From Eledone cirrhosa (Eukaryota): 64,000 nt of DNA. The number at the start of each line of letters is the position of its first letter. The first letter of the stretch is position 1. Positions 2,301 through 55,392 of the stretch are shown here, in pieces. The translations under genes were made by a program, and so were the position numbers. A model generated the notes under the pieces. The model did not search any database. It had not been told where the DNA came from and saw only the letters and a list, made by a program, of their open reading frames with translations. Where the stretch lies: contig OZ024741.1 in NCBI GenBank assembly GCA_964016885.1, forward strand, positions 176,142,001-176,206,000, given 5' to 3'.

Positions 2301-3017
2301 GATGCTTTTTTTCCGTGGCGCCTACACGTACATTTTACAGTGTGGGCTGGGTGCTATTTGCCGTGGCACCTCCACGGCCACTTTGTAGTGGGAGGTGGTG
2401 GGGGCATATTGTCTATATGCTTCAGCTTCGGCATGTACCCGTGGGGGTCGGGTCTTCTGTATTACTGCATGACGTCACGGTCGGGTGTTATCGCCTTTGA
2501 GAGGTGCAATTGGGTAACGTCGGCTTATATATATATATATATATATATATAGAGTTAGGGAAGCAGAAAATTGCTTGTTGTAACCAGTTCTTGGTTAAGC
2601 TAGCCAGTTTCATGGACAGTTTCAACGTACGGTTAGGGGTAACTCCATAAATTTGTAAGAATCGCGTTCAATCTTGATGTATAAAGAATAAAAGAGAAAA
2701 CACAGGTAAGTATTAAAAAAAGGATTTTAACCAGGTATTTACGACCGTTTCATTGGTAAGTGCAACCTTATACCGCTATAGTGCAAATAGCAGCCACTCA
2801 ATAATAATTGATGTTCACCTCCAAATTTTCAAAGTAATGAATAAGTTACTTGTAAAAGGTTCTTAATATATAAAAAACATTTTTTGGAATTGTATTTACT
2901 AGTATAGAGAGAGCGAGGAAAGGGGAGAATAATTAGGAAGTAGAGTGACAAACGGAGTAGTATAGAGAGAGAGGGAGAATTAGGAAGTAGAGTGACAAAC
3001 GGAGTAGTATAGAGAGA

Positions 3018-5345
<2,328 letters not shown>

Positions 5346-5592
5346 GCAAAAGTTCTATTTAAAATTGTTGGGATACAACAAGTAAATATTTTTATAACTG
5401 ATATAAAGCACTCGACAAGTATTTGGAGTAGATATACGATATTAATAAATGGAAACTATATTTATAAAACCATATTTATTTCATTATACATATTTCAGGG
5501 ATACCAGATTAAATTATGGTATGCCTTCATCAGACAAAATACAATATATAACAGTTTTACAAATAAGCTTTGACGTACCCTATTAAAATGCA
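5346..5592 (-). mobile_element. Family B PLE pLTR 3' end with hammerhead at 5478-5540
   Basis: AUUUUGU-CUGAUGA-stem II (AUACCA/UGGUAU)-GAAA-UAUGUA-UA-AUGAAAU; homologous to 42381-42620 and 9965-10314. Confidence 0.75.
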
Positions 5593-6854
5593 ACCATAAT
5601 CAACATACTGATTGCGGATTTGGTACGGGTGATGAGAAACGTGTCCCGCATGTGCAACCCCAAAGAACTAGAGAGACACATACAACACTTCATCCAGCGT
5701 ATGCAGTTCTCTGGTTACAATCAGAGAGATAAAAACAGAGTATATAGAGGAGCCAGAACCAAATGGGAAAAAATGGTAAATAATGATGCACATTTTGGAA
5801 TAGAATAGAAATAACTAGGAATAAGCTTAGTAGAATAAACTCATGGTATGATAACAATAAATACCAGAGTGTAATGTTCATCAATACAACCCTAGATGTG
5901 AAATAGCTTACAATTTCAGAAGGGCCCTAGATAAACATAAACTCAATATTAAGATAGTAGAAAGACCAGGTACCTCCATAAAAACACTTATTAGCAATAC
6001 ATACCCTTTTCAAAGACCTCCCTGTATAGATAAGAAATGTATAATCTGTAAACCAAGCCCCCATATTAACTGTAAAACTAGAAATGCAGTATATAGCATA
6101 AGATGTACTGAAGGACAATGTAGAGATAAGAATATACTGTACATAGGTGAGACAGCTCGTAGTATAGGAGAACGGATAAATGAAGACTGGCGAGAGCTTC
6201 AAGATAGTAAAGAATCATCTGTACTCTACCAACATTCTAAAATAGAACATAAGGGTAAATTAAAGAACATAGAAATAAAAATAGAATCTACACACAAAAA
6301 AGACGCAATGTTTAGACAAATCACAGAGGCAATAAACATATATGAACTCCAACCAAAATTAAATAGAAAGCATGAATGGAATAGCAACATCACAACTTAC
6401 AATTAAGGACAAAATGAAAATACACACACATATAGAACAAACAACCAACCAGTAACATGTAAATAAACAAATAAATAAACAAATATGAACACACACAGAC
6501 ACCCGGATGTAACACATGCGCAAACTAAGCACACAACACACACAAAAACAAGATGGCGTAGGACAGAACAAAGGAGAGGCACAAAAACAAAGAAAAGAAT
6601 CCCCAGTCACTGAAGAGGTCACAGCATGTGTGACGAAAGAACTTTGACAATATATGAACAATCTTCTGGCTGTGGAACCAACCAACCGGAAATTTATAAA
6701 TTCCTAAATTTATAAATTTAATTTATAATAAATTGACGTGAAAGCAACTGGTGCGTGTGTTTCTTATTGGCAACATGACCCTCCCAAAGTATAACAATAT
6801 CGGTTTCAACACACGTTTTCAGATAAAGAATCTTGCTAAACAAATTTAGAAACG

Positions 6855-6856
<2 letters not shown>
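5593..6856 (+). mobile_element. PLE family A 3' fragment (thumb, GIY-YIG, pLTR; hammerhead at 6606-6648)
   Basis: Close match to the reverse complement of 3018-4250; ends GAAACGAA at (AT)n. Confidence 0.9.
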
Positions 6857-6942
<86 letters not shown>

Positions 6943-8129: not shown

Positions 8130-8650
8130 TAAATAGGGAGATAGAAAGCAGGCTTTATTTACAAACAGCTAGCGAATTCGAAAATTAGGTAGTAACATGT
8201 GTTCATACCATATTTGACTACATGGAATTAGTCTGTTAGTTGGGACTTAAAAAAACTCTCTGAATGGAAAAAAAGTATGAGCATTGACGGGACACGAACT
8301 CACATATTTGGTGTGGAAGCCCAATGAGTTACCGTAACACCAACACGCCACAAACGCATACTTCCATTCAGTTAGAAGCTATATAACCATAGCAGGTATA
8401 TATGTATATAAATATATATACATATATATATACCTGCTATAGTTATATAGTTTCTCATTGAATGGAAGGAAGCATGGGTGGCGTGGTTGTGTAATGGTAA
8501 CACGTTGGGACGGCAAACCAACGGTGTAGGTTCGTGTCCCATGTACATCGATACTCATCTTTTTTTCCAATCAGAGGACTTTTTAAATCCCAACTAACAG
8601 ACTAATTCTGTGTAGTCAAATACAGTGTAAGCGCATGTTACTACCTAATT
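8130..8650. mobile_element. Head-to-head pair of tRNA-like-containing repeat units (family T)
   Basis: 8184-8400 and 8430-8650 are imperfect reverse complements; homologous to 54621-55163. Confidence 0.7.
8480..8549 (+). ncRNA. tRNA-like (pseudo-tRNA) Pol III module
   Basis: A box TGGTTGTGTAATGG, B box GGTTCGTGTCC, T7 run at 8560-8566, and TTATATAG about 35 nt upstream. Confidence 0.6.
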
Positions 8651-9964: not shown

Positions 9965-10314
9965 ACAATGATATTAAATAAATGGAAACTATATTTATAA
10001 AACCATATTTATTCTAGTATATATATTTCAAGGGTACCAACAACTTTGGTACGCTTTCATCAGATAAAATACAAAGTGTGTTTTATAAATTTTGACATAG
10101 AAAAGGAAACATACCTTATCAGTTGAATTTCCCTTGGTTAGTCAAGGGAAATTCAACTGATGAGGTATGTTTCCTTGGCTATGTCAAAATTTATAAAACA
10201 CACTTTGTATTTTATCTGATGAAAGCGTACCAAAGTTGTTGGTACCCTTGAAATATATATACTAGAATAAATATGGTTTTATAAATATAGTTTCCATTTA
10301 TTTAATATCATTGT
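9965..10314. mobile_element. 350-bp palindrome of family B pLTR with two opposed hammerheads (10011-10070 minus, 10209-10268 plus)
   Basis: Arms are near-perfect reverse complements centred at about 10140. The plus-strand motif is AUUUUAU-CUGAUGA-AAGCGUACCAA..UUGGUACCCUU-GAAA-UAUAUA-UA. Confidence 0.85.
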
Positions 10315-19187: not shown

Positions 19188-19943
<756 letters not shown>

Positions 19944-24999: not shown

Positions 25000-26250
25000 C
25001 TTGCTTACTGGCCAGTGAAGGGAATAACACGTATGGCCGCTAATATATCTCTGTATATTCACATCTCGTTTGGATTTTTGTCTGAAGGTAACAGTTGTTA
25101 TACAACTGCCTTACGTCTTTGAAATACGTATAACAAAATAAATAGGGATGTACAAATGAAACCGTCTTTCTTGTTTATTATTATAATAAAACTCCGGCTG
25201 AACAAAAACCGTGGAGTGCTTTTACATCTGTTAAGATAAAGTTGGCAGATTTTCAATCAACGAACCTTCTTCAATTGAATAAATTTATGCTCTTATCCTA
25301 GTCGAGCGCTTTCTTCTATAACAGATACCGAAAAGATGGAATCTTTTAATATCTCAACATCACTTAAGTATGTACTCATACCAGGAAAGAGAGAGTTTAC
25401 CAAATAACTAATTGAGAAAATTGATTTCTTCGTACGTAGAATGCGATATGTGCTTACCATTTTGATGAGAAATCAAGTAAAAAACGGAATAACCTAGCTA
25501 AGAATAATCTGGAATGAAAATTTAGAACAAAGGAAATACAAACAATGGAAAAACCCATCATATAACAAATATCTAGCGTAATTTGAAAACGAAATGCTCA
25601 AAATCAAGCATGGCGTCAGATTCAGGAAAGATACATACAGATGTCAGGAGCACCTGAAAAATGTAAAGGACATGATTAAGGAACTTCAGAAAGTTAAGAA
25701 AATTGTGGTCCACTCTGACAAAACCAATAACCTGTTTGGATTAGATAAGGAAGAATATAATAAACTAATGATCAGAGAACTAAGAAAAAACTATCGTAAA
25801 ACGACCTCTGAAAACCTTGAATCAATAAATAAGAAAGATAAGAAATAGAGACTAAGCTAGTGATTAAACACTGCACGGAGCCTTACATACCTAGAACAGT
25901 GAGGATTAATATGAAATACCATAAAAACAATTTTGAATCAGATCTACCAGTTAGACTTATAGCACCATCGAAAGCCGACATAATAATCATAACTAAGAGC
26001 ATACTAAAAAAGGATCATACCACCATTAAAGCTGAGGACACAACTTAAAACTATGGAATGGAACCAATGAAGTTATTGAAAATAGGACTAAATTCATACA
26101 AATGGACATAGCTAGCTACTACTCATCAATTTCAGCAACAGGACTCAAGAAGGCCCGGATCTTGCCAATGAGGAAGTTAACGATAATAGATTTCAACGGG
26201 GAATTAAGAACAAAAACCGTGGAGTTAAGAAAAGGTAGGAAGTTTTTCAA
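25000..26250 (+). mobile_element. Second coding PLE family, degenerate 5' half (pLTR hammerhead remnant at 25076-25138, N-terminus and RT start)
   Basis: MESFNISTSLK..LIEKIDFFVRRMR; HSDKTNNL..YNKL; K.HKNNF..PVRLIAPSK; MDIASYYSS. Multiple stops. Confidence 0.7.
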
Positions 26251-26256
26251 TACATA

Positions 26257-26350
<94 letters not shown>

Positions 26351-26354
<4 letters not shown>

Positions 26355-29300
26355 ATGTTTTGGGAGGGTCATGTTGCCAATAAGAAACACACGCACCTGT
26401 TGCTTTCACTCCAATATATTATAAATTAAATTTATAAATTTAAGAATTTATAAATTTCCGGTTGTTCATATATTGTCAAAGTTCTTTCGTAACACATTCT
26501 GTGACCTCTTCAGTAACTGGGAATTCTTTTCTTTGTTTTGTGCCTCTCCTTTGTTCTGTCCTACGCCATCTTGGTTTTGTGTGTATTGTGTGCCTAGTTT
26601 GCGCATGTGTTACATCCGGATGTCTGTGTGTGTTTTGATTTGTTTATTTATTTGTTTATTTACATGTTACTGGTTGGTTGTTTGTTCTAGTTGTGTGTGT
26701 GTTTTCATTTTGTCCTTAATTGTAAGTTGTGATGTTGCTATTCTATTCATGTTTTCTATTTAATTTTGGTTGGAGTTCATTTTGGTTGGAGTTCATTTGG
26801 TTGGAGTTTATTGCCTGTGTCATTTGTCTAAACATTGCGTCTTTTCTCAGTGTAGATTCTGTGTGTAGTTGTATATGTACACTATATTCTTATCTCTACA
26901 TTGTCCTTCAGTACATCTTATGCTATATACTACATTTCTAGTTTTGCAGTTAATATGGGGGCTTAGTTTACAGATTATGCATTTCTTATCTATACAGGGA
27001 GGTCTTTGAAAAGGGTATGTATTGCTAATAAGTGTTTTTATGGAGGTTCCTGGTCTGTTTCTACTATCTTAATATTAAGTTTATGTTTATCTAGGGCCCT
27101 TCTAAATTTGTAAGCTAATTCACCTCTAGGGGTTGCATTGATGAACATTACACTCTGGTATTTATTGCTATCATACCATGAGTTTATTCTATTAACCTTA
27201 TTCCTAGTTCTTTCTATTCTATTCCAAAATTTGCTCATATACAAGGGGCAGGTCCCATTTGTATCATTATTTACCATATTTTTTGACTCTGATGAATTAT
27301 CGATATTACAGCTACCACCTAAATATGCCACATATAATAAGGTAAATATGACAAAATATTTGTCAGAAATAGAAAAATCATTTACAAAATTACGTTGGAG
27401 CCTCAAAAACAAAAACGAAAACAAAAGTAACAACATAAGCACACACGCACATACAACACACATCTCAACAACAACAGACACACAGACACAAACAACGATA
27501 ACAACAACAAACACATCAACAATAATAACATACTCAGAGACAACAACAACATACACACAGACACAAACAACAATAACAACAACACCACACATCAAGAACA
27601 GGACACATCAACAACAACAACAGCACACACACATTCTATACATCTCACCACCACCACAGTCTTAACAAACACACAGACACAGAAAATAGGTAATGACAGT
27701 AGCACAGAAGTAAAAGAAGGTAATGGGATTGAAAGGAGAAGGGAGACTATCGATACTGACAGAGAAAATAACCAGGAAAAACACACAGACACACAAAATA
27801 GAGTAGATAATAACAATGAGCCAGAGGAAAGAGACAGGAGTAATAATGAGAGACATAGAAACAACCATGAGGCTGTTGGTGGAAATAGAAATAGAAACAA
27901 CACAACTAATAATAACAATAACAATAGTACGCATAAAGCAGCAGCCTGGAATTCTACTTTTTATAATCCTCCGATATGTACTTCGACCTACGATGAGTCC
28001 ATTCACGACTTTAGCTTTTAACAAACGCACGCAATTGCCGTCGGAAGCTGATGAACAAACAGAAACACAATTTGGTATATCTAGATCTAAACTTAGAAAT
28101 ATTATAGAACAGTATAGCAAGAAGCAAAATAGAATCGAGGCCCAGCACCTGGGAAAAAATCCGCAAATGGCTTGCGTAAGCTCATGCAGCGCTCGCGTAA
28201 TGGAGAGATTTCATGCTTTCCAACAGACATGTCTGGCAGAATGTCGATTGACAGTCTATCAAACTATATCCAGGCAATGCAAACCCACATCACTAACACA
28301 AGAGAAGTAACACCACAAGAGCATGAGGATAGGGACAAAACCCTCAATGCCCATATGAGGATGTGGACAAACATAATGCAGCCCAATAAAAGGATGGCCA
28401 ACAAATTACAGGCCTGGAACAATGACGTGCCAGCGTTGTATGGGCTTCGAAAAGACTATAAGATGAGCAGTGACCCTGACACAGGACCACCAACACGGTC
28501 TTCTGTGGAGCTAACATTGCTAGTAACTACAGACTTACCTACTTCCTCTCCCAGATCATACGACCCATCATTGAAATGTCCCCAGATATATGTGACAGCA
28601 CGGAGGATCTCCTCAGCAGAATCAGCGAAAATAACCGATCTAGGGACCTAACAGACTGTATAATAGGTAGTATGGATTTTGTGTCCCTATATCCATCCAT
28701 TGACGTCGATTTTGCTGTGGAGAAATGCGTAGAAATGACCAGTGAGAGCAACATGAATCCGTGGGATTGATACCGGTGAGCTGTGACTCCTACTTAAACG
28801 TACTTAATGTAATAATTATCTAGATACATATGACCTTAGCAACCTGTGCCCTACAAGACCAGCAAGAAGCAGACCACATACCATTACCTCAATGGCCAAG
28901 AAAACCCACACAGAAAGGTGGAACGGGTGGACCAGAGCTATACGGACCCCCCGAAAACCACGATGAACTAAAGAAAATGATTGCACATCCGGTGGGGGCC
29001 AGTATAAAACTAACCCTTAAGGAACATATGTTCAAATTTAATGGAAAAACATATGCCCAAGATGAGGGAGAAGCCATTGGTGTTAGCATTGCAGGTGACA
29101 TAGCTAACCTATTCATGGTATGGTGGGACAATAAACTTAAACTTAAACTTAAAGAACAATTAGAAGACAGCAACTTCTTAACCCTGATAATGTATTCCCG
29201 CTACGTTGATGATATAAGCATCGTAGTAAAAAACACCCCAACTAGAAAACAGTCAGGAATTAGAGAAAAACACAATGGAAAGCATCCAGCAAATAGCTAA

Positions 29301-30803
29301 CTCCATCCACCAGAGTATTAGAGTTACTATAGACTACCCAAGCAAACACCCCAACCTTCGATTACCTGTACTAGACACAGAACTCTGGTTGGAAACCATT
29401 AATAACAAATAACAAATCCTCCATTCCCATTATGCCAAACCATGTCTTCCAAATATCTGATCCACCGAAACTCGGCTGTTTCGGACCATACCAAAATCAA
29501 CATACTGATTGCGGATTTGGTACGGGTGATGAGAAATGTGTCCCGCATGTGCAACCCCAAATAACTAAAGAGACACATACAACATTTCATCCACCGTATG
29601 CAGTTCTCTGGTTACAATCAGAGAGATAAAATCAGAGTATATAGAGGAGCCAGAACCAAATGGGAAAAAATGATAAATAATGATACAAATGGGACCTGCC
29701 CCTTGTATAGGAGCAACGTTTGGAATGGAATAGAAAGAACTAGGAATAAGGTTAATAGTATAAACTCATGGTATGATAACAATAAATACCAGAGTGTAAT
29801 GTTCATCAATACAACCCCTAGAGGTGAATTAGCTTACAAATTTAGAATGGCCCTAGAGAAACATAAACTTAATATTAAGATAGTAGAAAGACCAGCTACC
29901 TCCATAACAACTCTTATTAGCAATACATACCCTTTTCAAAGACCTTCCTGTATAGATAAGAAATGCATAATCTGTAAACTAAGCCCCCATATTAACTGTA
30001 AAACTAGAAATGTAGTATAGAGCATAAGATGTACTGAAGGACAATGTAGAGATAAGAATATAGTGTACATAGGTGAGACAGCTCGTAGTATAGGAGAAGG
30101 GTTACATGAACACTGGCGAGAACTTCAAGATAAAAAAGAATCATCAATACTCCACCAACATGCTAAAATAGAACATAAGGGCAAATTAGATAGCATAGAA
30201 ATAAAAATAGAATCTACACACAGAAAAGACGCAATGTTTAGACAAATCACAGAGGCAATAAACATAAATGAACTCCAACCAAAATGAAATAGAAAACATG
30301 AATCGAATAGCAACATCACAACTTACAATTAAGGAGAAAATGAAAACACACACCCACATAGAACAAACAACCAATCAGTAACATGTAAATAAACTAATAA
30401 ATAAACAAATAAAAACACACACAGACACCCGAATGTAACACATGCGTAAACTAAGCACACAACACACACAGAAACAAGATGGCGTAGGGCAGAACAAAGC
30501 AGAGGCACAAAACAAAGAAAAAGAAGACAAAGAAAGGAATCCCCAGTCACTGAAGAGGTCACAGAGTGTGTGACGCAAGAACTTTGAAAATATATGAACA
30601 ACCGTCCGGTTATGGAACCAACCAACCAACCGGAAATTTATAAATTCTTAAATTTGTAAATTTAATTTATAATATATTGGAGTGAAAGCAACTGGTGCGT
30701 GCGTGTGTTTCTTATTGGCAACATGACCCTCCCAAAGTATAACAATATCGGTTTCAACACACGTTTTCAGATAAAGAATCTTGCTAAACAAATTCAGAAG
30801 CGA
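26351..30803 (+). mobile_element. Longest PLE family A copy: inverted 3' part (26351-27283, minus) plus N-term-RT-EN-pLTR (27285-30803, plus); pseudogenised
   Basis: GLRKD..GPPTR, SMDFVSLYPSID, QDEGEAIG, RYVDDI, YIGETARS. Hammerhead remnants at 26475-26517 (minus) and 30546-30588 (plus, GAAA mutated to GCAA). (AT)n on both sides. Confidence 0.92.
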
Positions 30804-30823
30804 TATATATATATATATATATA

Positions 30824-31170
30824 TTGGTGCTACACGAGAATCCTGAGGATGGATCTGAACATTAATCCGTATGCACTGAGGATGAAGAACTCAGAGCTGT
30901 ACGGGAGCCTACCAAAAGTGAGCTCGAAAGTGTCACAGATGAGACTGAGGTTGGCTGGACCGGCTAACTGATATCCAGAGTTGACACTGCACTCAGTGCT
31001 CCTCTGGGGGCCCCTGCATGGACACAATGAAAGAGGAAGACCAAGGTTAACATGTTGATGCCCTAAGGACAGACACTGGTCTCTCGGAGACGCAGGACAT
31101 GGCAGTGATAATGAGGGACAGAGACCGCTGGAGAGAAGTCGTCCATGGATCTCGGGAATTTTACCCGCCC
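30824..31170 (+). mobile_element. RTE-type LINE 3' fragment
   Basis: CYTRILRM..ELYGSLPKVS..RLRLAG..LLWGP..RGRP..MRDRDRWR. Confidence 0.75.
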
Positions 31171-31211
31171 TATATACATATATATATAGACATATATATA
31201 TATATATATAT

Positions 31212-34200
31212 TTCGTTTCTGAATTTGTTTAGCAAGGTTCTTTATCTGAAATCGTGTGTTGAAACCGATATTGTTATACTTGGGGGGGGGGGGGGGTCAT
31301 GTTGCCAATAAGAAACACACGCACCAGCTGCGTTCACTTCAATTTATTATAATAAATTTATAAATTTAGGAATTTATAAATCTATAAATTTCTGGTTGGC
31401 TGGTTGGTTCCACAACCAGATGGTTGTTTATATATTGTCAAAGTTCTTTCGTCACACATTCTGTGACCTCTTCAGTGATTGGGGATTCTTTTCTTTGTTT
31501 TTGTGCCTCTCCTTTGTTCTGTCCTACGCCATTTTGTTTCTGTGTGTGTGTTGTGTGCTCAGTCTGCGCATGCGCCACATCCGGGTGTCTGTGCGTGTTT
31601 ATATTTGTTTATTTATTTGTTTATTTACATGTTACAGGTTGGCTGTTTGTTCTATGTGTGTGTGTGTTTTCATTTTGTCCTTAATTGTAAGTTGTGATGT
31701 TGCTGTTCCACTCATATTTTCTATTTAATTTTGGTTGTAATTCTTTTATGTTTATTGCCTCTGTGATTTGTCTAAACATTGCGTCTTTTCTGTGTATAGA
31801 TTCTATTTTTATTTCTATGTTCTCTAATTTACCCTTATGTTCTATTTTAGCATGTTGGTAGAGTACAGATGATTCTTTACTATCTTGAAGCTCTCGCCAG
31901 TGTTCATTTATCCGTTCTCCTATACTACGAGCTGTATCACCTATGTACACTATATTTTTGTCTCTACATTGTCCTTCAGTACATCTTATGCTATACACTA
32001 CATTTCTAGTTTTACAGTTAATATGGGGGCTTATTTTACAAGTTATTCATTTCTTATCTATACAGGGGGGTCTTTGAAAAGGGTATGTCTTGCTAATAAG
32101 TGTTTTTACGAAGGTAACTGGTCTTTCTACTATCTTAATATTGAGTTTATGTTTATCTAGGGCCCTTCTAAATGTGTAAGCTAATTCACCTCTAGGGGTT
32201 GTATCGATGAACATTACACTCTGGTATTTATTGCTATCATACCATGAGTTTATTCTATTAGCATTATTCCTAGTTCTTTCTATTCTATTCCAAAATTTGC
32301 TCCTATACAACACTTCATCCACCGTATGCAGTTCTCTGGTTACAATCAGAGAGATAAAATCACAGTGTATAGAGGAGCCAGAACCAAATTGGAAAAAATG
32401 GTAAATAATGACACAAATGGGACCTCTCCCTTGTATAGGAGCAAATTATGGAATAGAATAGAAAGAACTAGGAATAAGGCTAATAGAATAAACTCATGGT
32501 ATCGAAAAACCATAACATCTCGACAACTACACTTCATAAAAGAATGTGCCTCGTCCCGAGTTTACACCAACACAATCAACACCGACGTAAGAAGATTACA
32601 ACTCACCAAAAAGCAAGCAGATAGGCTAAAACGAACACTAATTCTAAACATAAAAAAAGAAGATCTATAGAGAATTAAGTCATCAAGAAAAGCATAAGCG
32701 TAACCTAATACAAGACATAGCTAGGATCACCACACCAAGAGAGAAACTAATATTTATAAGCCTTATACGTCCTGAAGAACAGTACATTGCTCAAGAATGT
32801 GATAAGCACTTTAACATAAAACTAAATCAGGATACTGTAGAGAATACCAATATATATCCCAACAAAATTGACGGTATAAATATGGCCGACACCTCATTAA
32901 CAGATGAGTTCATCAACAACAACAACAACACAAATATATACGGCAACACGGCAATAGACCCTGGTGAATTATCTGTATTACTTCTACCACCGAAATTTGC
33001 GACATTCAAGAAGGTAAATATAATTAGTTGTCTGTCAGAAATAGAAAAATCATTTACAAAATTACGTTGGAGCCTCAAAAACAAAAACAAAAACAACAAC
33101 ATACGCACGCACATGTACAACACACATCCCAACAACAACAGATACACAGACACAAACAACAATAACAACAACACACACACTAACAATAATAACATACCCA
33201 GAAACAACAACAACAGACACGCAGACACAAATAACAATAACAACACACACAACAATAATAACACACACGGAAACAACAACAACAACACACATCAACAACA
33301 GCACACATCAACAACAACACACACACATTCAATGCCTTTCACCACCACCACAATCTTAACAAACACACAGACACAGAAAACAAGTAACGACAGTAGCACA
33401 GAAATCACAGAAATAAGGGAAAGTAATAGGATTAAAAGGAGAAGGGAGACAATGGACAAAGAAAATAACCAAGACGAACACACAGACACACAAAATAGAG
33501 TAGATAATAACAATGAGCCAGTGGAAAGAGACAGGAGTAATTATGAGAGACATAGAAACAACCATGAGGCTGTTGGTGGAAATAGAAATAGAAACAACAC
33601 AACTAACAATAACAATAGCACTAGTACACATAAAGCAGCAGCCTGGAACTCTACTTTTTATAATCCCTCCGATAAGTCGTTCGACCTGCGACGAGTCCAC
33701 CCCACGACTTTACCATTTAACAAACGCACGCAATTGCCGTCGCAGGTCGATGAACAAACAGAAGCACAATTTAGTATAGCTAGATCCGAACTTAGAAATA
33801 TTATAGAACAGTATAACAAGAAGCATAATAGAATGGAGGCCCAGCAACTGGGAGAAAATCTGCAAATGGCTTGCGTAAGCTCATGCAGCGCTCACGTAAT
33901 GGAGAGATAGCATGCTTTCCAACAGACAAGTCTGGCAGAATGTCGGTTGACAGCCTGCCAAACTACATCCAGGCAATGCAACCCCCACATCGCTAACACA
34001 AGAGAAGTAACACCACAGGAGCATGAGGATAGAGAAAAAGCCCTCAATGCCCATAAGGTGATGTGGACGAAGATAATGCAGCCCAACAAAAGGACTGCCA
34101 ACAACTTCCAGGCCTGGAACAATCACGTGCCGGCGTTGTATGGGCTTCGAAAAGACCATAAAGCGGGCAGTGACCCTGTCACGGGACCACCAACACGGCC

Positions 34201-35347
34201 AGTCTATGGGGCTAACATTGCTAGTAACTACAGTTCTCTGGTTACAATCAGAGAGATAATATCAGAGTGTATAGAGGAGCCAGAACCAAATGGGAAAAAA
34301 TGGTAAATAATGACACAAATGGGACCTGCCCCTTGTATAGGAGCAAATTTTGGAATAGAATAGAAAGAACTAGGAATAATGCTAATAGAATAAACTCATG
34401 GTATGCTAGCAATAAATGCCAGAGTGTAATGTTCATCGATACAACCCCTAGAGTTGAATTAGCTTACAAATTTAGAAGGGCCCTAGATAAACATAAACTC
34501 AATATTAAGATAGTAGAAAGACCAGGTACCTCCGTAAAAACACTTATTATCAAGACATACCCTTTTCAAAGACCCCCCTGTATAGATAAGAAATGTATAA
34601 CATGTAAAATAAGCCCCCATATTAACCGTAAAACTAGAAATGTAGTGTATAGCATAAGATGTACTGAAGGACAATGTAGAGACAAAAATATAGTGTACAT
34701 AGGTGAGATAGCTCGTAGTGTAGGGGAACGGATAAATGAACACTGGCGAGACCTTTAAGATAGTAGAGAATCATCTGTACTCTACCAACATGCTAAAATA
34801 GAACATAAGGGTAAATTAGAGAACATAGAAATAAAAATAGAATCTACACACAGAAAAGACGCAATGTTTAGACAAATGACAGAGGCAATAAACATAAAAG
34901 AATTACAACCAACATTAAATAGAAAATATGAGTGGAACAGAAACATCACACCTTACAATTAAGGACAAAATGAAAACACACACACACATAGAACAAACAA
35001 CCAACCTGTAACATGTAAATAAACAAATAAATAAACAAACAGACACCCGGATGTGGCGCATGCGCAGACTGAGCACACATCACACACACAGAAACAAAAT
35101 GGCGTAGGACAGAACAAAGGAGCGGCACAAAAACAAAGAAAAGAATCCTCAGTTACTGAAGAGGTCACAGAATATGTGACGAAAGAAATTTGACAATATA
35201 TAAACAACTATCTGGTTGTGGAACCAACTAACCAACCAGAAATTTATAGATTTATAAATTCCTAAATTTATAAATTTATTATAATAAATTGAAGTGAAAC
35301 GACTGGTGCCTGTGTTTCTTATTGGCAACATGACCCTCCCAAAGTAT

Positions 35348-35351
<4 letters not shown>
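31212..35351 (+). mobile_element. Rearranged PLE family A: inverted 3' part (31212-32310), thumb fragment, N-terminal ORF, RT-core deletion, EN-pLTR
   Basis: ORFs 32882-33910, 33947-34230 and 34267-34758; hammerheads at 31437-31479 (minus) and 35151-35194 (plus). Confidence 0.9.
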
Positions 35352-35386
<35 letters not shown>

Positions 35387-36823
35387 TATACATATATTAT
35401 TAATACGTGAATTTGATATATAGATATATATAAAGCTATTAATCGAGTAAGTATGTAATGTCACTTTTATGTATATTAAAGATATTAAGTAATTTGATAC
35501 GGAATTAAGAATATCTAATTAGTGGTCTCGCGCTTCTAAGTACGAACACAACGGAGGTTAATTTAGACTTTGGAATCCATGGGCCCTGAAATAAATACAG
35601 CTTATTATATAGGATAGTGTTTTCCTTAGTGGATTCCTCGTCAGGTTTTCACATAAATAAATACATATTCTAAAACTATATATTCTTTCTGATAAATAGG
35701 GTAGTGCATTGTATTTTATCTCAAGTTAAACTCACAGTTCACAAATATCTCCCCTTTAGGCGAGCATCTAACCCACTCTGGTGTTATAACAATAACATAA
35801 AACACAATAACATTGGCATGAATTCAATATAATTCATTACGTCTTTGATAAATTTCATGTAAGTTGAGAAGACAGTATTCTGCTAGCCACCAGGCAGGAA
35901 TTTCTTATGACATCAAAGTTTGACGATGACAACAACAACAACAACAAACAAAGAAATATAACAACAAAAATGCAGTAATACGAGAGAAATGCAGTAATTT
36001 CGAATATGCTTAGCCGTAATAAAGTGTATGATGTGCCAAAAACACGGAAATCAGAAACAAAACAAAAATCTAGTAAAGAGAATGTTGGTGTCATAGTCAT
36101 CTTTATAACCATTTTTAACACCTGAGCTCAAATCCCTCCATGGTCAACATTGACTTTATCCTTCGGGATCACTAAATTAAAGTACCAGTTACATAATGAG
36201 GCTAAAATAACCATCCAAAAGTCTAGTCTTGTGCTAATTTCTAGCCCTCAGTTTATCAGATAACTACTTCCAAGATAGAATGGAAAAGATATAATTTCCG
36301 TCAAAAAATAATTTCAAGAACAAAAAAGGAAATAATAGAAAATAAAAACAAAATAATGTGATTATGAAGAAATTACTTTTACACAAAAAAAAAAAAGAAA
36401 TTGTTGAGCACTCAACTTTTTGGGTGCTGGTCATTTATCAAAAGAAACATGGGAAGAAGAAAACAAACATTGACTAATGGTTTTACAGTGAACGAGGCCT
36501 GGCGGATAGCTCCTGTTTCTTGTACCCATCACGTTCAATATTTATGACCATATATCGTACATTGTAGAAACTGTGTTTAACACGATGTTGTTGTTAAGCC
36601 AGAGAGCAGATCAATGGCTTAACCCTTTAGTGTTCAAACCGGCCCAAACCGGCCAGAATTCTGTATCTCTTTCTGTTGAAACTGGCTGTAACTGGTCGCT
36701 CAAACTTATGTTAAGGTATTGTTCTCAAACTAAATACTTTCAAAATCTCATAGATTCGATATTATGTGAGATAATTATGTGAGGTAAAGCCTTTACCATG
36801 AAAATATAATAGTATATATAAAA

Positions 36824-53802: not shown

Positions 53803-54620
53803 GTTTATATATGTATCGACCTTCAGCCTGACACTGCTTTGACTGATACACTCCCTTCCCTGTATATATCACATGCATGTATGTGGTTGTGCGTGTGTGT
53901 GTGTCTATCGCGTGCTTTCATACTTGTATGTGTATATGTTTCAATCCTTAGTCCCTGAGTCTGTATGTACGCTAACTCTATTATCTTACAATTTCTTTTT
54001 TCAACATATATTATATACGTATTTGTGGTCACACATACACTGATATGCTTGCCCTCATGTATGTACTTACGCACACATTTTTTCATTATACATGCATTTG
54101 TACATACACACATATGTACATTTGTAGGTGCATATACACATATTTATACACATACCCTTACTATATTTCCTTATTTTATTTTTATATATCTCTTGCATTA
54201 CTTTTATTTGTATATTTTTTTTGCCCGTTAAATTTTGCCTTTCTTGAGGAGATTTATCAAATATTTCACTATGTTTTAAATTGCTTTCTCTGACGAACGA
54301 ATGAGGACGTTTCTTGTATTCGTCTTATTCGGAAAACCTCTGGTAATGAGGTAATTATATTGTATTGTTTATTATACATTAAATTCAGCTCTGTAACTTA
54401 CATAGAGCACCCTTCACTCATATGACTTTTTCAATTTTCAACGGAAACTTCAATACTTATATATATATATATATATATATATCAAGTAAGCATATATATA
54501 TATATATATATATATATATCAAGTAAGCATATATATATATATATATATATATATATCAAGTAAGCATATATATATATATTTCAAGTAAGCATGTATATAT
54601 ATATATATATATATATATAT

Positions 54621-55157
54621 CAAGTAAGAATATTTTCGAAACAGCGAGTGGGTTTGAAATTATTATTAATGTAAGCTATCGCCGTATTTTGACTAAAGAA
54701 ATTAAAGAAATTATTTAGCCTGATAGTGGGGTTAAGAACCCTCGGAGAAATGGAAAAAAATGAGTATTGACGTACATGGGAGTCGAATCCACATCTTTGG
54801 GTATCCAGACCCACTGTGCTACCATTTACACCAACACATCACCCGTCTTTTCCCATTCAAATTAGAAGCTATAAACTTAGCGACTGTAATGTCAAGTAAG
54901 AATATTTTCGAAACAGCGAGCGGGTTTGAAATTATTATAAATGTAAGCTATCGCCGTGTTTTGACTAAAGAAATTAAAGAAATGATTTAGCCTGATAGTG
55001 AGGTTACGAACCCTCGGAGAAATGGAAAAAGATGAGTATTGATGTACATGGGAGTCAAACCCACATCTTTTTCCATTTCTCCGAGGGTTCTTAACCCCAC
55101 TATCAGTCTAAATAATTTCTTTAATTTCTTTAGTCAAAATACGGCGTTAGCTTACAT

Positions 55158-55163
<6 letters not shown>
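54621..55163 (-). mobile_element. Family T element: 272-nt unit, a partial second unit and an inverted terminus
   Basis: CAAGTAAGAATATTTTCGAAACAGCGAG at 54621 and 54893; 55069-55163 is inverted; (AT)n flanks. Confidence 0.85.
54769..54840 (-). ncRNA. 72-nt tRNA-like cloverleaf with aberrant anticodon loop
   Basis: GAUGUGU UG GUGU AAAUGGUA GCAC AG UGGGU CUGGAU ACCCA AAGAU GUGGA UUCGACU CCCAU GUACGUC, followed by a T7 run. Confidence 0.7.
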
Positions 55164-55197
<34 letters not shown>

Positions 55198-55392
55198 CAT
55201 ATAAAATTGAAATATAGTCGTCCCAACGCAAAAATGACAATATCGATCACAATAAATTTAAGAAAATCTGGTATAACAACACTGGAGACGGAAAACATGG
55301 TCAGCGGAGCCTGCTAAACAATAAAAACCATATCCATGTTCCTGCAGACCATTCTAAAGCAGATGCCGAGGGACGGGGTCATATGCCTTTTC

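Follow-up and report, generated by a model that had tools for sequence, protein, structure and literature searches.

A dispersed non-coding tandem repeat family with an internal tRNA-like gene and a Penelope-like insertion footprint

INTRODUCTION

Insertions of Penelope-like elements (PLEs) are marked by an optional tail, truncation, tandem copies, and inverted 5′ copies (PMC8557442; statements on cited papers, here and below, refer to the accessible portions of those papers), and all of these hallmarks are seen in the unit described here. The optional tail has been explained by two internal RT starts (PMC11167929). In vitro, Poseidon, a PLE of Anolis, nicks AT-rich DNA and extends on both strands; its two internal RT starts define the tail, and hammerhead cleavage is unnecessary for insertion, Poseidon being autonomous, protein-coding, and hammerhead-bearing, unlike the unit here (PMC11167929). 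Chlamys and Naiad PLEs have a pLTR and form head-to-tail multi-copy insertions, as does the unit, and Naiads, which occur in Octopus, also resemble it in targeting (TA)n, in having 30–40-bp tails, and in their inverted 5′ copies (PMC8557442). Non-autonomous Chlamys elements, e.g., MRC1, belong to a clade without canonical hammerheads, as in the unit here; they generally share 3′ sequence with their partner, and no such sharing was found for the unit in 71 PLE loci (PMC8557442). The accessible text on Chlamys and Naiad elements mentions no tRNA-like gene, unlike the unit here (PMC8557442).

Metazoan non-LTR retrozymes are, like the unit, non-coding tandem units of similar size that have been proposed to be mobilised by PLEs (PMC7229834; bioRxiv 10.64898/2026.07.22.740005). 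Each of their units carries a type I hammerhead, and circular RNA is formed; the unit here has no hammerhead, and its genomic signs are compatible with both a circle and a linear multimer (PMC7229834; bioRxiv 10.64898/2026.07.22.740005). The accessible parts of these two sources mention no tRNA-like promoter in retrozymes (bioRxiv 10.64898/2026.07.22.740005; PMC7229834). The Sm-alpha/Sj-alpha elements of Schistosoma consist of a short tandem unit that is apparently transcribed by Pol III, as we propose for the present unit, and the promoter of an upstream unit transcribes the units that follow (PMC6765202). The multimers of Sm-alpha are cut by a hammerhead, which the present unit lacks (PMC6765202).

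tRNA-derived SINEs have a tRNA-like internal promoter, as is proposed for the unit, a fifth of whose insertion arms start at the tRNA. Such SINEs start at the tRNA, have a LINE-derived tail, and usually show TSDs; the octopus OK, OR1, and OR2 elements and the Ceph-SINEs are tRNA-derived SINEs, and they are likened to the unit here by description only. The unit differs from SINEs in carrying upstream sequence and in its PLE-type footprint.

RESULTS

Structure of the insertion in the window

The insertion lies in the window, i.e., the whole 64,000-nt stretch of DNA that was analysed, and its features are collected in Table 1. The initial annotation had described a 272-nt unit in about 1.6 copies that is then inverted, anchored in (AT)n; this arrangement was seen, with 1.65 tandem copies and (TA)n on both sides. 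The inverted arm ends at the inner site, ~40 nt short of the tail site, and overlaps the truncated upstream unit by 7 nt where the two join. The (TA)n tract past the outer 3′ end is broken up by four copies of a 10-nt piece in which the terminal 8 nt of the element recur; these repeats may reflect repeated abortive priming or minisatellite-type duplication.

Table 1. Coordinates of the repeat insertions and their parts in the window
Feature	Position	Strand	Remark or basis
Subfamily B insertion, left arm	8146-8397	-	3′ end at tail site
Subfamily B insertion, right arm	8432-8650	+	3′ end at inner site in (TA)n
(TA)n target tract past outer 3′ end	54460-54620	.	Sequence
Complete unit, subfamily A	54621-54892	-	272 nt; 3′ end is the outer ("tail") site and adjoins (TA)n
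Predicted downstream hairpin	54691-54720	-	Stems kept between subfamilies, loop length variable
Predicted downstream hairpin	54729-54741	-	Predicted
Trailer, 3′ strand of predicted helix	54748-54765	-	Includes T-run 54754-54760
tRNA-like cloverleaf	54768-54840	-	Rfam RF00005, ARAGORN
B-box-like segment	54779-54790	-	Within cloverleaf
A-box-like segment	54822-54833	-	Within cloverleaf
Purine-rich leader, 5′ strand of predicted 18–20-bp helix	54841-54858	-	A>G excess here
TATA-like upstream block	54860-54875	-	12 nt invariant across 3/3 subfamily consensuses
Upstream tandem unit	54893-55070	-	Unit positions 1-178, 94% identity; 5′-truncated within cloverleaf at +41
Inverted head-to-head arm	55064-55165	+	Unit positions 41-142, 96% identity
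(TA)n tract past 3′ end of inverted arm	55159-55203	.	Sequence

The cloverleaf scored 33.9 bits with Rfam RF00005 (cut-off 29) and was read by ARAGORN as "tRNA-???", and those of sister copies reached up to 52 bits. It had been annotated as a full 72-nt fold; the fold is present at a length of 73 nt in the window copy, which is degenerate: an additional base in its anticodon stem is private to it, and its B-box is altered. The TATA-like box placed upstream of it by the same annotation was found. The annotated T7 terminator holds as a T-run after the cloverleaf, its length of seven being private to the window copy (the family has T5–6): position 54759 is G in 415,189 of 417,834 of the depth in sequencing run X1. 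Contigs from three sequencing runs agree with the family variants. The T-run doubles as one strand of the predicted leader–trailer helix described below. The sequence downstream of the cloverleaf, given earlier as about 130 nt, is ~147 nt long.

The tRNA-like gene as a plausible Pol III promoter

An A/B-box-bearing tRNA-related region is present, as in tRNA-derived SINEs (SINE2); the two segments are presumably an A-box and a B-box, labels that we take from general knowledge of tRNA genes. The anticodon loop varies within and between subfamilies, being read as GGA, CGA, or GGC, and position 33 is C or G in many copies rather than a stable U33. This unstable anticodon and the lack of a stable U33 are not those of a functional tRNA gene. 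The cloverleaf showed 48–65% identity to 20 other tRNA or tRNA-like genes, and no parent tRNA was identified among these 20. A role of the tRNA-like gene as a Pol III promoter is plausible.

Two other tRNA-related groups were noted. A second dispersed family, >1 kb long (L290 and L292-L300, ~1190-2950 in tRNA sense), may be a DNA transposon. It has an internal inverted repeat, ~300 nt of conserved sequence upstream, and an internal tRNA-like gene of 53–71 bits; the anticodon of this gene is variable, and its anticodon loop is that seen in subfamily B, overall identity being 55–65%. In the tRNA-Thr clusters of L289 and L291, the upstream flanks often contain the TATA-like 8-mer that precedes the cloverleaf of the unit, at a shorter distance from the gene.

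An abundant, dispersed repeat family

The window copy is a member of an abundant dispersed non-coding repeat family. Searching the 3.0-Gb genome (1,796 contigs) gave 2,375 first-look candidates with the unit as query and 1,930 with the relative from the 8-kb region. One exact 21-mer of the unit had at least 2,083 genome matches and its control had 0; among segments chosen by other means, it was kept in 84 of 109 of subfamily A, 8 of 15 of A2, and 11 of 69 of B, so the true family number exceeds 2,083 because many segments lack the 21-mer. Copies are spread genome-wide, and the unit is not only a local tRNA-gene tandem array. The diverged relatives at 8130-8650, taken earlier as evidence of a family, prove to be a two-armed insertion of subfamily B, in which 8436-8605 is 74% identical to the unit over 176 nt.

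Three subfamilies were distinguished: A (271 nt; median divergence from consensus, 3%), A2 (260 nt; 4–5%), and B (286 nt; 6–9%). The T-run is T5 in 104 of 134 copies of A and 69 of 90 of A2, and T6–7 in 38 of 52 of B. Cloverleaf and trailer together are 86–100% identical between subfamilies, compared with 59–75% for the downstream sequence; the trailer by itself shows 90–100% identity.

Most arms hold 1–2 units, with a range from dimers to arrays of at least 21. In an 11-unit array and the array of at least 21 units, subsets of units share substitutions of all types, which argues for DNA-level duplication after insertion and not for editing-marked rolling-circle copying. Editing-type periodicity was not found in these long arrays, 1 of the 17 shared changes in the 11-unit array being A>G. 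At one locus (L032, 1578-1931), six tandem copies of a 58-nt internal cloverleaf piece lie at the 5′ junction, which suggests repeated RT slippage on the tRNA fold.

A Penelope-like insertion footprint

The footprint was scored in the first 100 21-mer matches in position order, not ranked by similarity, a sample that is biased to motif-containing arms and younger copies. It comprised 92 arms from 76 loci in tRNA-sense orientation, with three arms dropped (two in a long array and one segmental twin). Of the 3′ ends, 45 lay at the tail site, 23 at the inner site, and 10 at a third site, with 14 scattered elsewhere; the two fixed sites thus took 68 of the 92 arms, with a spacing of ~38 nt in A and A2 and ~50 nt in B. 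(TA)n followed 80 of the 92 3′ ends, compared with a background of 7–12%. The 5′ neighbour was an inverted piece in 62 of the 92 arms, and all 43 adjacent inversions in the 76 loci were head-to-head, with 0 tail-to-tail. The 5′ truncation was variable, and partial tandem units were present. In only 5 of the 76 loci did both flanks carry, within 80 nt, a short direct repeat other than a microsatellite; no regular TSD was seen, with the proviso that TSDs composed of TA are not visible in a (TA)n target.

A C-terminal GIY-YIG PLE family whose pLTR carries a hammerhead is also present in the window, as several broken copies (3000-6900, 19400-19900, and 26240-35400). These hammerhead-bearing copies have two 3′ sites 58 nt apart in (TA)n; of the seven, three end at the inner site and two at the outer site, one more reaches the outer site, and one uses neither. 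The initial annotation had likened the (TA)n anchoring of the unit to that of PLE insertions and had proposed to check (TA)n targeting and the absence of TSDs; the same two-site ending of the window PLEs, the (TA)n bias, and the TSD result all bear this out.

Both arms of one insertion begin at the same fixed 3′ sites, and their sequences overlap. Rare variants were common to the arms of one insertion at 3.0/kb (44 in 14,440 sites) and to tandem units at 1.7/kb (16 in 9,273 sites), i.e., 12 and 7 times the 0.25/kb of random pairs, in counts that include a few loci entered via overlapping segments and to which gene conversion could contribute. This sharing points to one template lineage per insertion.

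A predicted leader–trailer helix with an A>G excess

The 18–20 nt that precede the cloverleaf are predicted to pair with the trailer, a stretch that begins 3 nt past the acceptor stem and takes in the T-run. The predicted helix pairs at 17 of 18 positions in A, 19 of 19 in A2, and 19 of 20 in B, where it is 2 nt longer on both strands, and most differences between subfamilies exchange A:U for G:U, a pair that exists only on the tRNA-sense strand. In three sister copies, the folding z was −3.5 to −3.8 in sense compared with about −1.9 in antisense (two controls); for the window copy, it was only −1.8. Covariation was weak: changes between subfamilies are one-sided, and 77 of 500 shuffles scored at least as high, in an alignment of individual copies whose distal helix part is out of register. 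Only RNA that contains the leader can form this helix, which would shield a long template from tRNA-processing nucleases.

In subfamily A, counted with one leader per locus in 52 loci and arrays left out, A>G changes were found at 13 of 260 sites of the leader A-run; the corresponding counts were 13 of 3,235 for A sites elsewhere and 3 of 910 for A-runs other than that of the leader. Some of these events are inherited, several being common to all units of one insertion. The excess suggests A-to-I editing of the helix followed by reverse transcription, or else G:U tolerance in the source elements.

The polarity of the family bears on whether it could be a satellite, MITE, or Helitron-like repeat, propagated at the DNA level, that has captured a tRNA gene. 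The duplication patterns in the 11-unit and at least 21-unit arrays are what such a repeat would leave; fixed 3′ ends with variable 5′ ends, the strand-specific A>G excess, mostly 1–2 units per arm, and the lack of terminal inverted repeats in single-arm copies are not. This explanation is disfavoured by the end polarity, and we give it very little credence.

Template 5′ ends and upstream sequence

In the position-ordered sample, 14 arms had 5′ ends at −5 to +3 of the first cloverleaf base, compared with 1.4 expected, within a broad peak from −9 to +7; 4 ends at −1 were ambiguous with the mature 5′ end, and 6 lay at +1 to +3. Among similarity-ranked copies, 20 5′ ends retained 2–6 nt of leader, mostly starting at G, and 5 lay at −1 to +1, in a hand count that may be partly inflated by junction microhomology. 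Of a Pol III primary transcript and an RNase P product, the former would be the better fit to the leader-retaining ends, although the broad peak does not decide the matter. As a separate observation, 5′ ends at −2 were very often preceded by AT, also at arm-to-arm junctions (L032, L033, L040, L047, L054, L056, and L125), possibly through untemplated addition by the RT.

Of the 65 arms that reach the tRNA start, 45 continue upstream and 41 cross into the previous unit, which implies a second class of long or circular templates carrying the upstream block. The concatemeric template with upstream sequence proposed by the initial annotation is supported by these arms, and its contrary case, in which most copies start at the tRNA 5′ end, does not apply, as only 20 of the 92 arms start within −9 to +7. 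By hand count, about nine multi-unit chains ran past a second tRNA start, with no stop at it, a mild point in favour of circles or very long RNAs.

These ends allow an ordinary tRNA-headed SINE moved by a LINE (e.g., RTE), with inversions arising by twin priming, to be weighed. The tRNA-like part, the simple-repeat flank, and the 5′ peak at the tRNA start would suit a SINE, and bivalve SINEs show tandem and palindromic arrangements in ~3% of copies in one species (PMC11481361). Against it stand the upstream sequence in those 45 of 65 arms, the adjacent inversions in 43 of 76 loci without a regular TSD, and the overlapping arms that begin at the same fixed 3′ sites. In LINE twin priming, the arms do not share fixed start sites with overlapping sequence. 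A SINE origin is largely refuted and very improbable.

A PLE-mobilised unit could also depend on RNase P, which would cut a multi-unit RNA at each tRNA 5′ end, with the helix holding the monomer ends for ligation into a circle that the RT copies round and round. The overlap of the 5′ peak with the mature 5′ end, the retained acceptor stem, the variants and leader A>G changes shared by units and arms, and the absence of stops at a second tRNA start would agree with this, and the helix would juxtapose −1 and +1 in the cut monomer. The 20 leader-retaining ends against 5 at −1 to +1 in the best-matching copies do not agree, a common source locus would also give shared variants, the alternating variants of the 11-unit array are not of the editing type, and position −1 is predicted to be paired. 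Such pairing should hinder RNase P. We regard this route as unlikely. The elaboration in which the unit is a ribozyme-free retrozyme, RNase P cutting the concatemer at its cloverleaves, the helix splinting ligation to a circle, ADAR editing the helix, and PLE RTs using both ends of a (TA)n break to copy the circle, seems to us somewhat less likely still. RNase P/Z processing in place of self-cleavage, as first suggested, is unsupported as the main route, given the ratio of 5′ ends. Cleavage is dispensable for PLE insertion in vitro, where uncleaved RNA is inserted by internal initiation, so nothing need replace the ribozyme (PMC11167929).

Transcription is the point on which another PLE-based explanation departs: Pol II read-through would be the only source of RNA, fold and helix would form a stability or protein-binding module, and the 5′ peak would be RT fall-off. 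It would accommodate a T5–7 run that is awkward for Pol III, a helix that needs RNA containing upstream sequence, and the passage of most arms through the tRNA start. Against it, the TATA-like block, the A/B-box-like segments, and the T-run are in tRNA-gene order and are the best-conserved parts, and an RT coming from the 3′ side should have opened the fold by the time it gets to the 5′ end. We consider this quite unlikely.

Absence of a hammerhead and search for a partner

The claim that the unit has no canonical hammerhead was upheld: no CUGAnGA of the core (CUGAnGA + GAAA) occurs on either strand of the three circularised consensuses, nor does a conserved U3-A8 variant, and a similar scan finds the hammerheads of the window PLEs. 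Scrambled hammerheads require the same core (PMC10085705). Rfam ribozyme families at E ≤ 10 were not found in eight loci, a weak test because the hammerheads of the window are also missed at curated cut-offs; the unit may contain an unknown ribozyme class. On the antisense strand, a three-way junction resembling a degenerate hammerhead was considered; it was rejected, as its core is not kept between subfamilies. Other hammerhead-like cores outside the main PLE family lie in the window at 10063-10216, 18212, 23044, 42573, and 54290.

GIY-YIG PLEs are plentiful in the genome, and some of them retain intact frames: the search gave 10,596 first-look candidates, some in open frames of 844–1,096 codons. 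No sequence similarity to the unit and no terminus in common with it was found in 50 GIY-YIG and 21 Naiad-like loci (of >10,000 candidates), long-ORF PLE loci likewise gave no common terminus, and the resemblance of the unit tail to the window PLE tail was not significant (p = 0.07, 0.21, and 0.34). The Naiad-like remnants are old and broken (30 matches, 41–65% identity apart from the query's own locus). PLE coding pieces adjoin the unit in 2 of 237 family loci, mid-frame, and there is no consistent fusion to a longer coding element in these 237 loci, so the unit does not appear as part of a longer known element. A supplement file of PMC8557442, its longer sequences abridged, contained no short motifs of the unit.

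DISCUSSION

On balance, we think it probable that this is a non-coding, hammerhead-less family with a PLE footprint that is copied in trans by a PLE RT/endonuclease, and that its internal tRNA-like gene serves as a Pol III promoter. Because no terminus is shared in the 71 PLE loci, PLE dependence is argued only from the footprint. Pol III would initiate 2–4 nt upstream of the cloverleaf and in part continue past the T5–6 run, and tandem loci would give multi-unit RNAs, linear or circular, that carry the upstream block of the next unit; new insertions would thereby regain a complete promoter, as PLE pLTRs do. In the long RNA, the leader would pair with the trailer, shielding the cloverleaf ends from RNase P/Z and exposing the A-run to A-to-I editing. 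With (TA)n nicked on both strands by the PLE protein, RT would begin at either internal site from both DNA ends, yielding two arms, and long arrays would grow further by DNA-level duplication. A T5–7 run 10 nt after the cloverleaf is expected to stop much Pol III transcription, so read-through must be assumed, and the absence of stops at the second tRNA start is not predicted by simple linear read-through.

If this reading is right, PLEs are themselves exploited by SINE-like parasites, for which PLE tandem copying and internal initiation offer a way around the rule that no Pol III retroposon can take its upstream promoter along. A non-coding substrate of 260–290 nt with fixed RT start sites would be a compact handle on recognition by the PLE protein and on the need for a ribozyme or circle. 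Thousands of tRNA look-alikes above the Rfam cut-off will inflate tRNA annotation in such genomes.

No description of a tRNA-bearing, hammerhead-less, PLE-dependent unit was found in the literature, Repbase, Dfam, SINEBase, and most subscription papers lying outside the scope of the search. The initial statement that no equivalent has been described was too strong: in the accessible portions of the sources, Sm-alpha is a Pol III tandem unit with a hammerhead (PMC6765202), and the non-autonomous Chlamys elements belong to a clade reported to lack canonical hammerheads (PMC8557442). Compared with Sm-alpha as described there, the unit has a full cloverleaf with an upstream block, a predicted helix, and a two-site, two-arm PLE footprint (PMC6765202). 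It does not belong to the retrozymes because it has no hammerhead, nor to the SINEs because it carries upstream sequence. By analogy, the unit integrates like a non-autonomous PLE or a retrozyme and is probably transcribed like Sm-alpha (PMC6765202).
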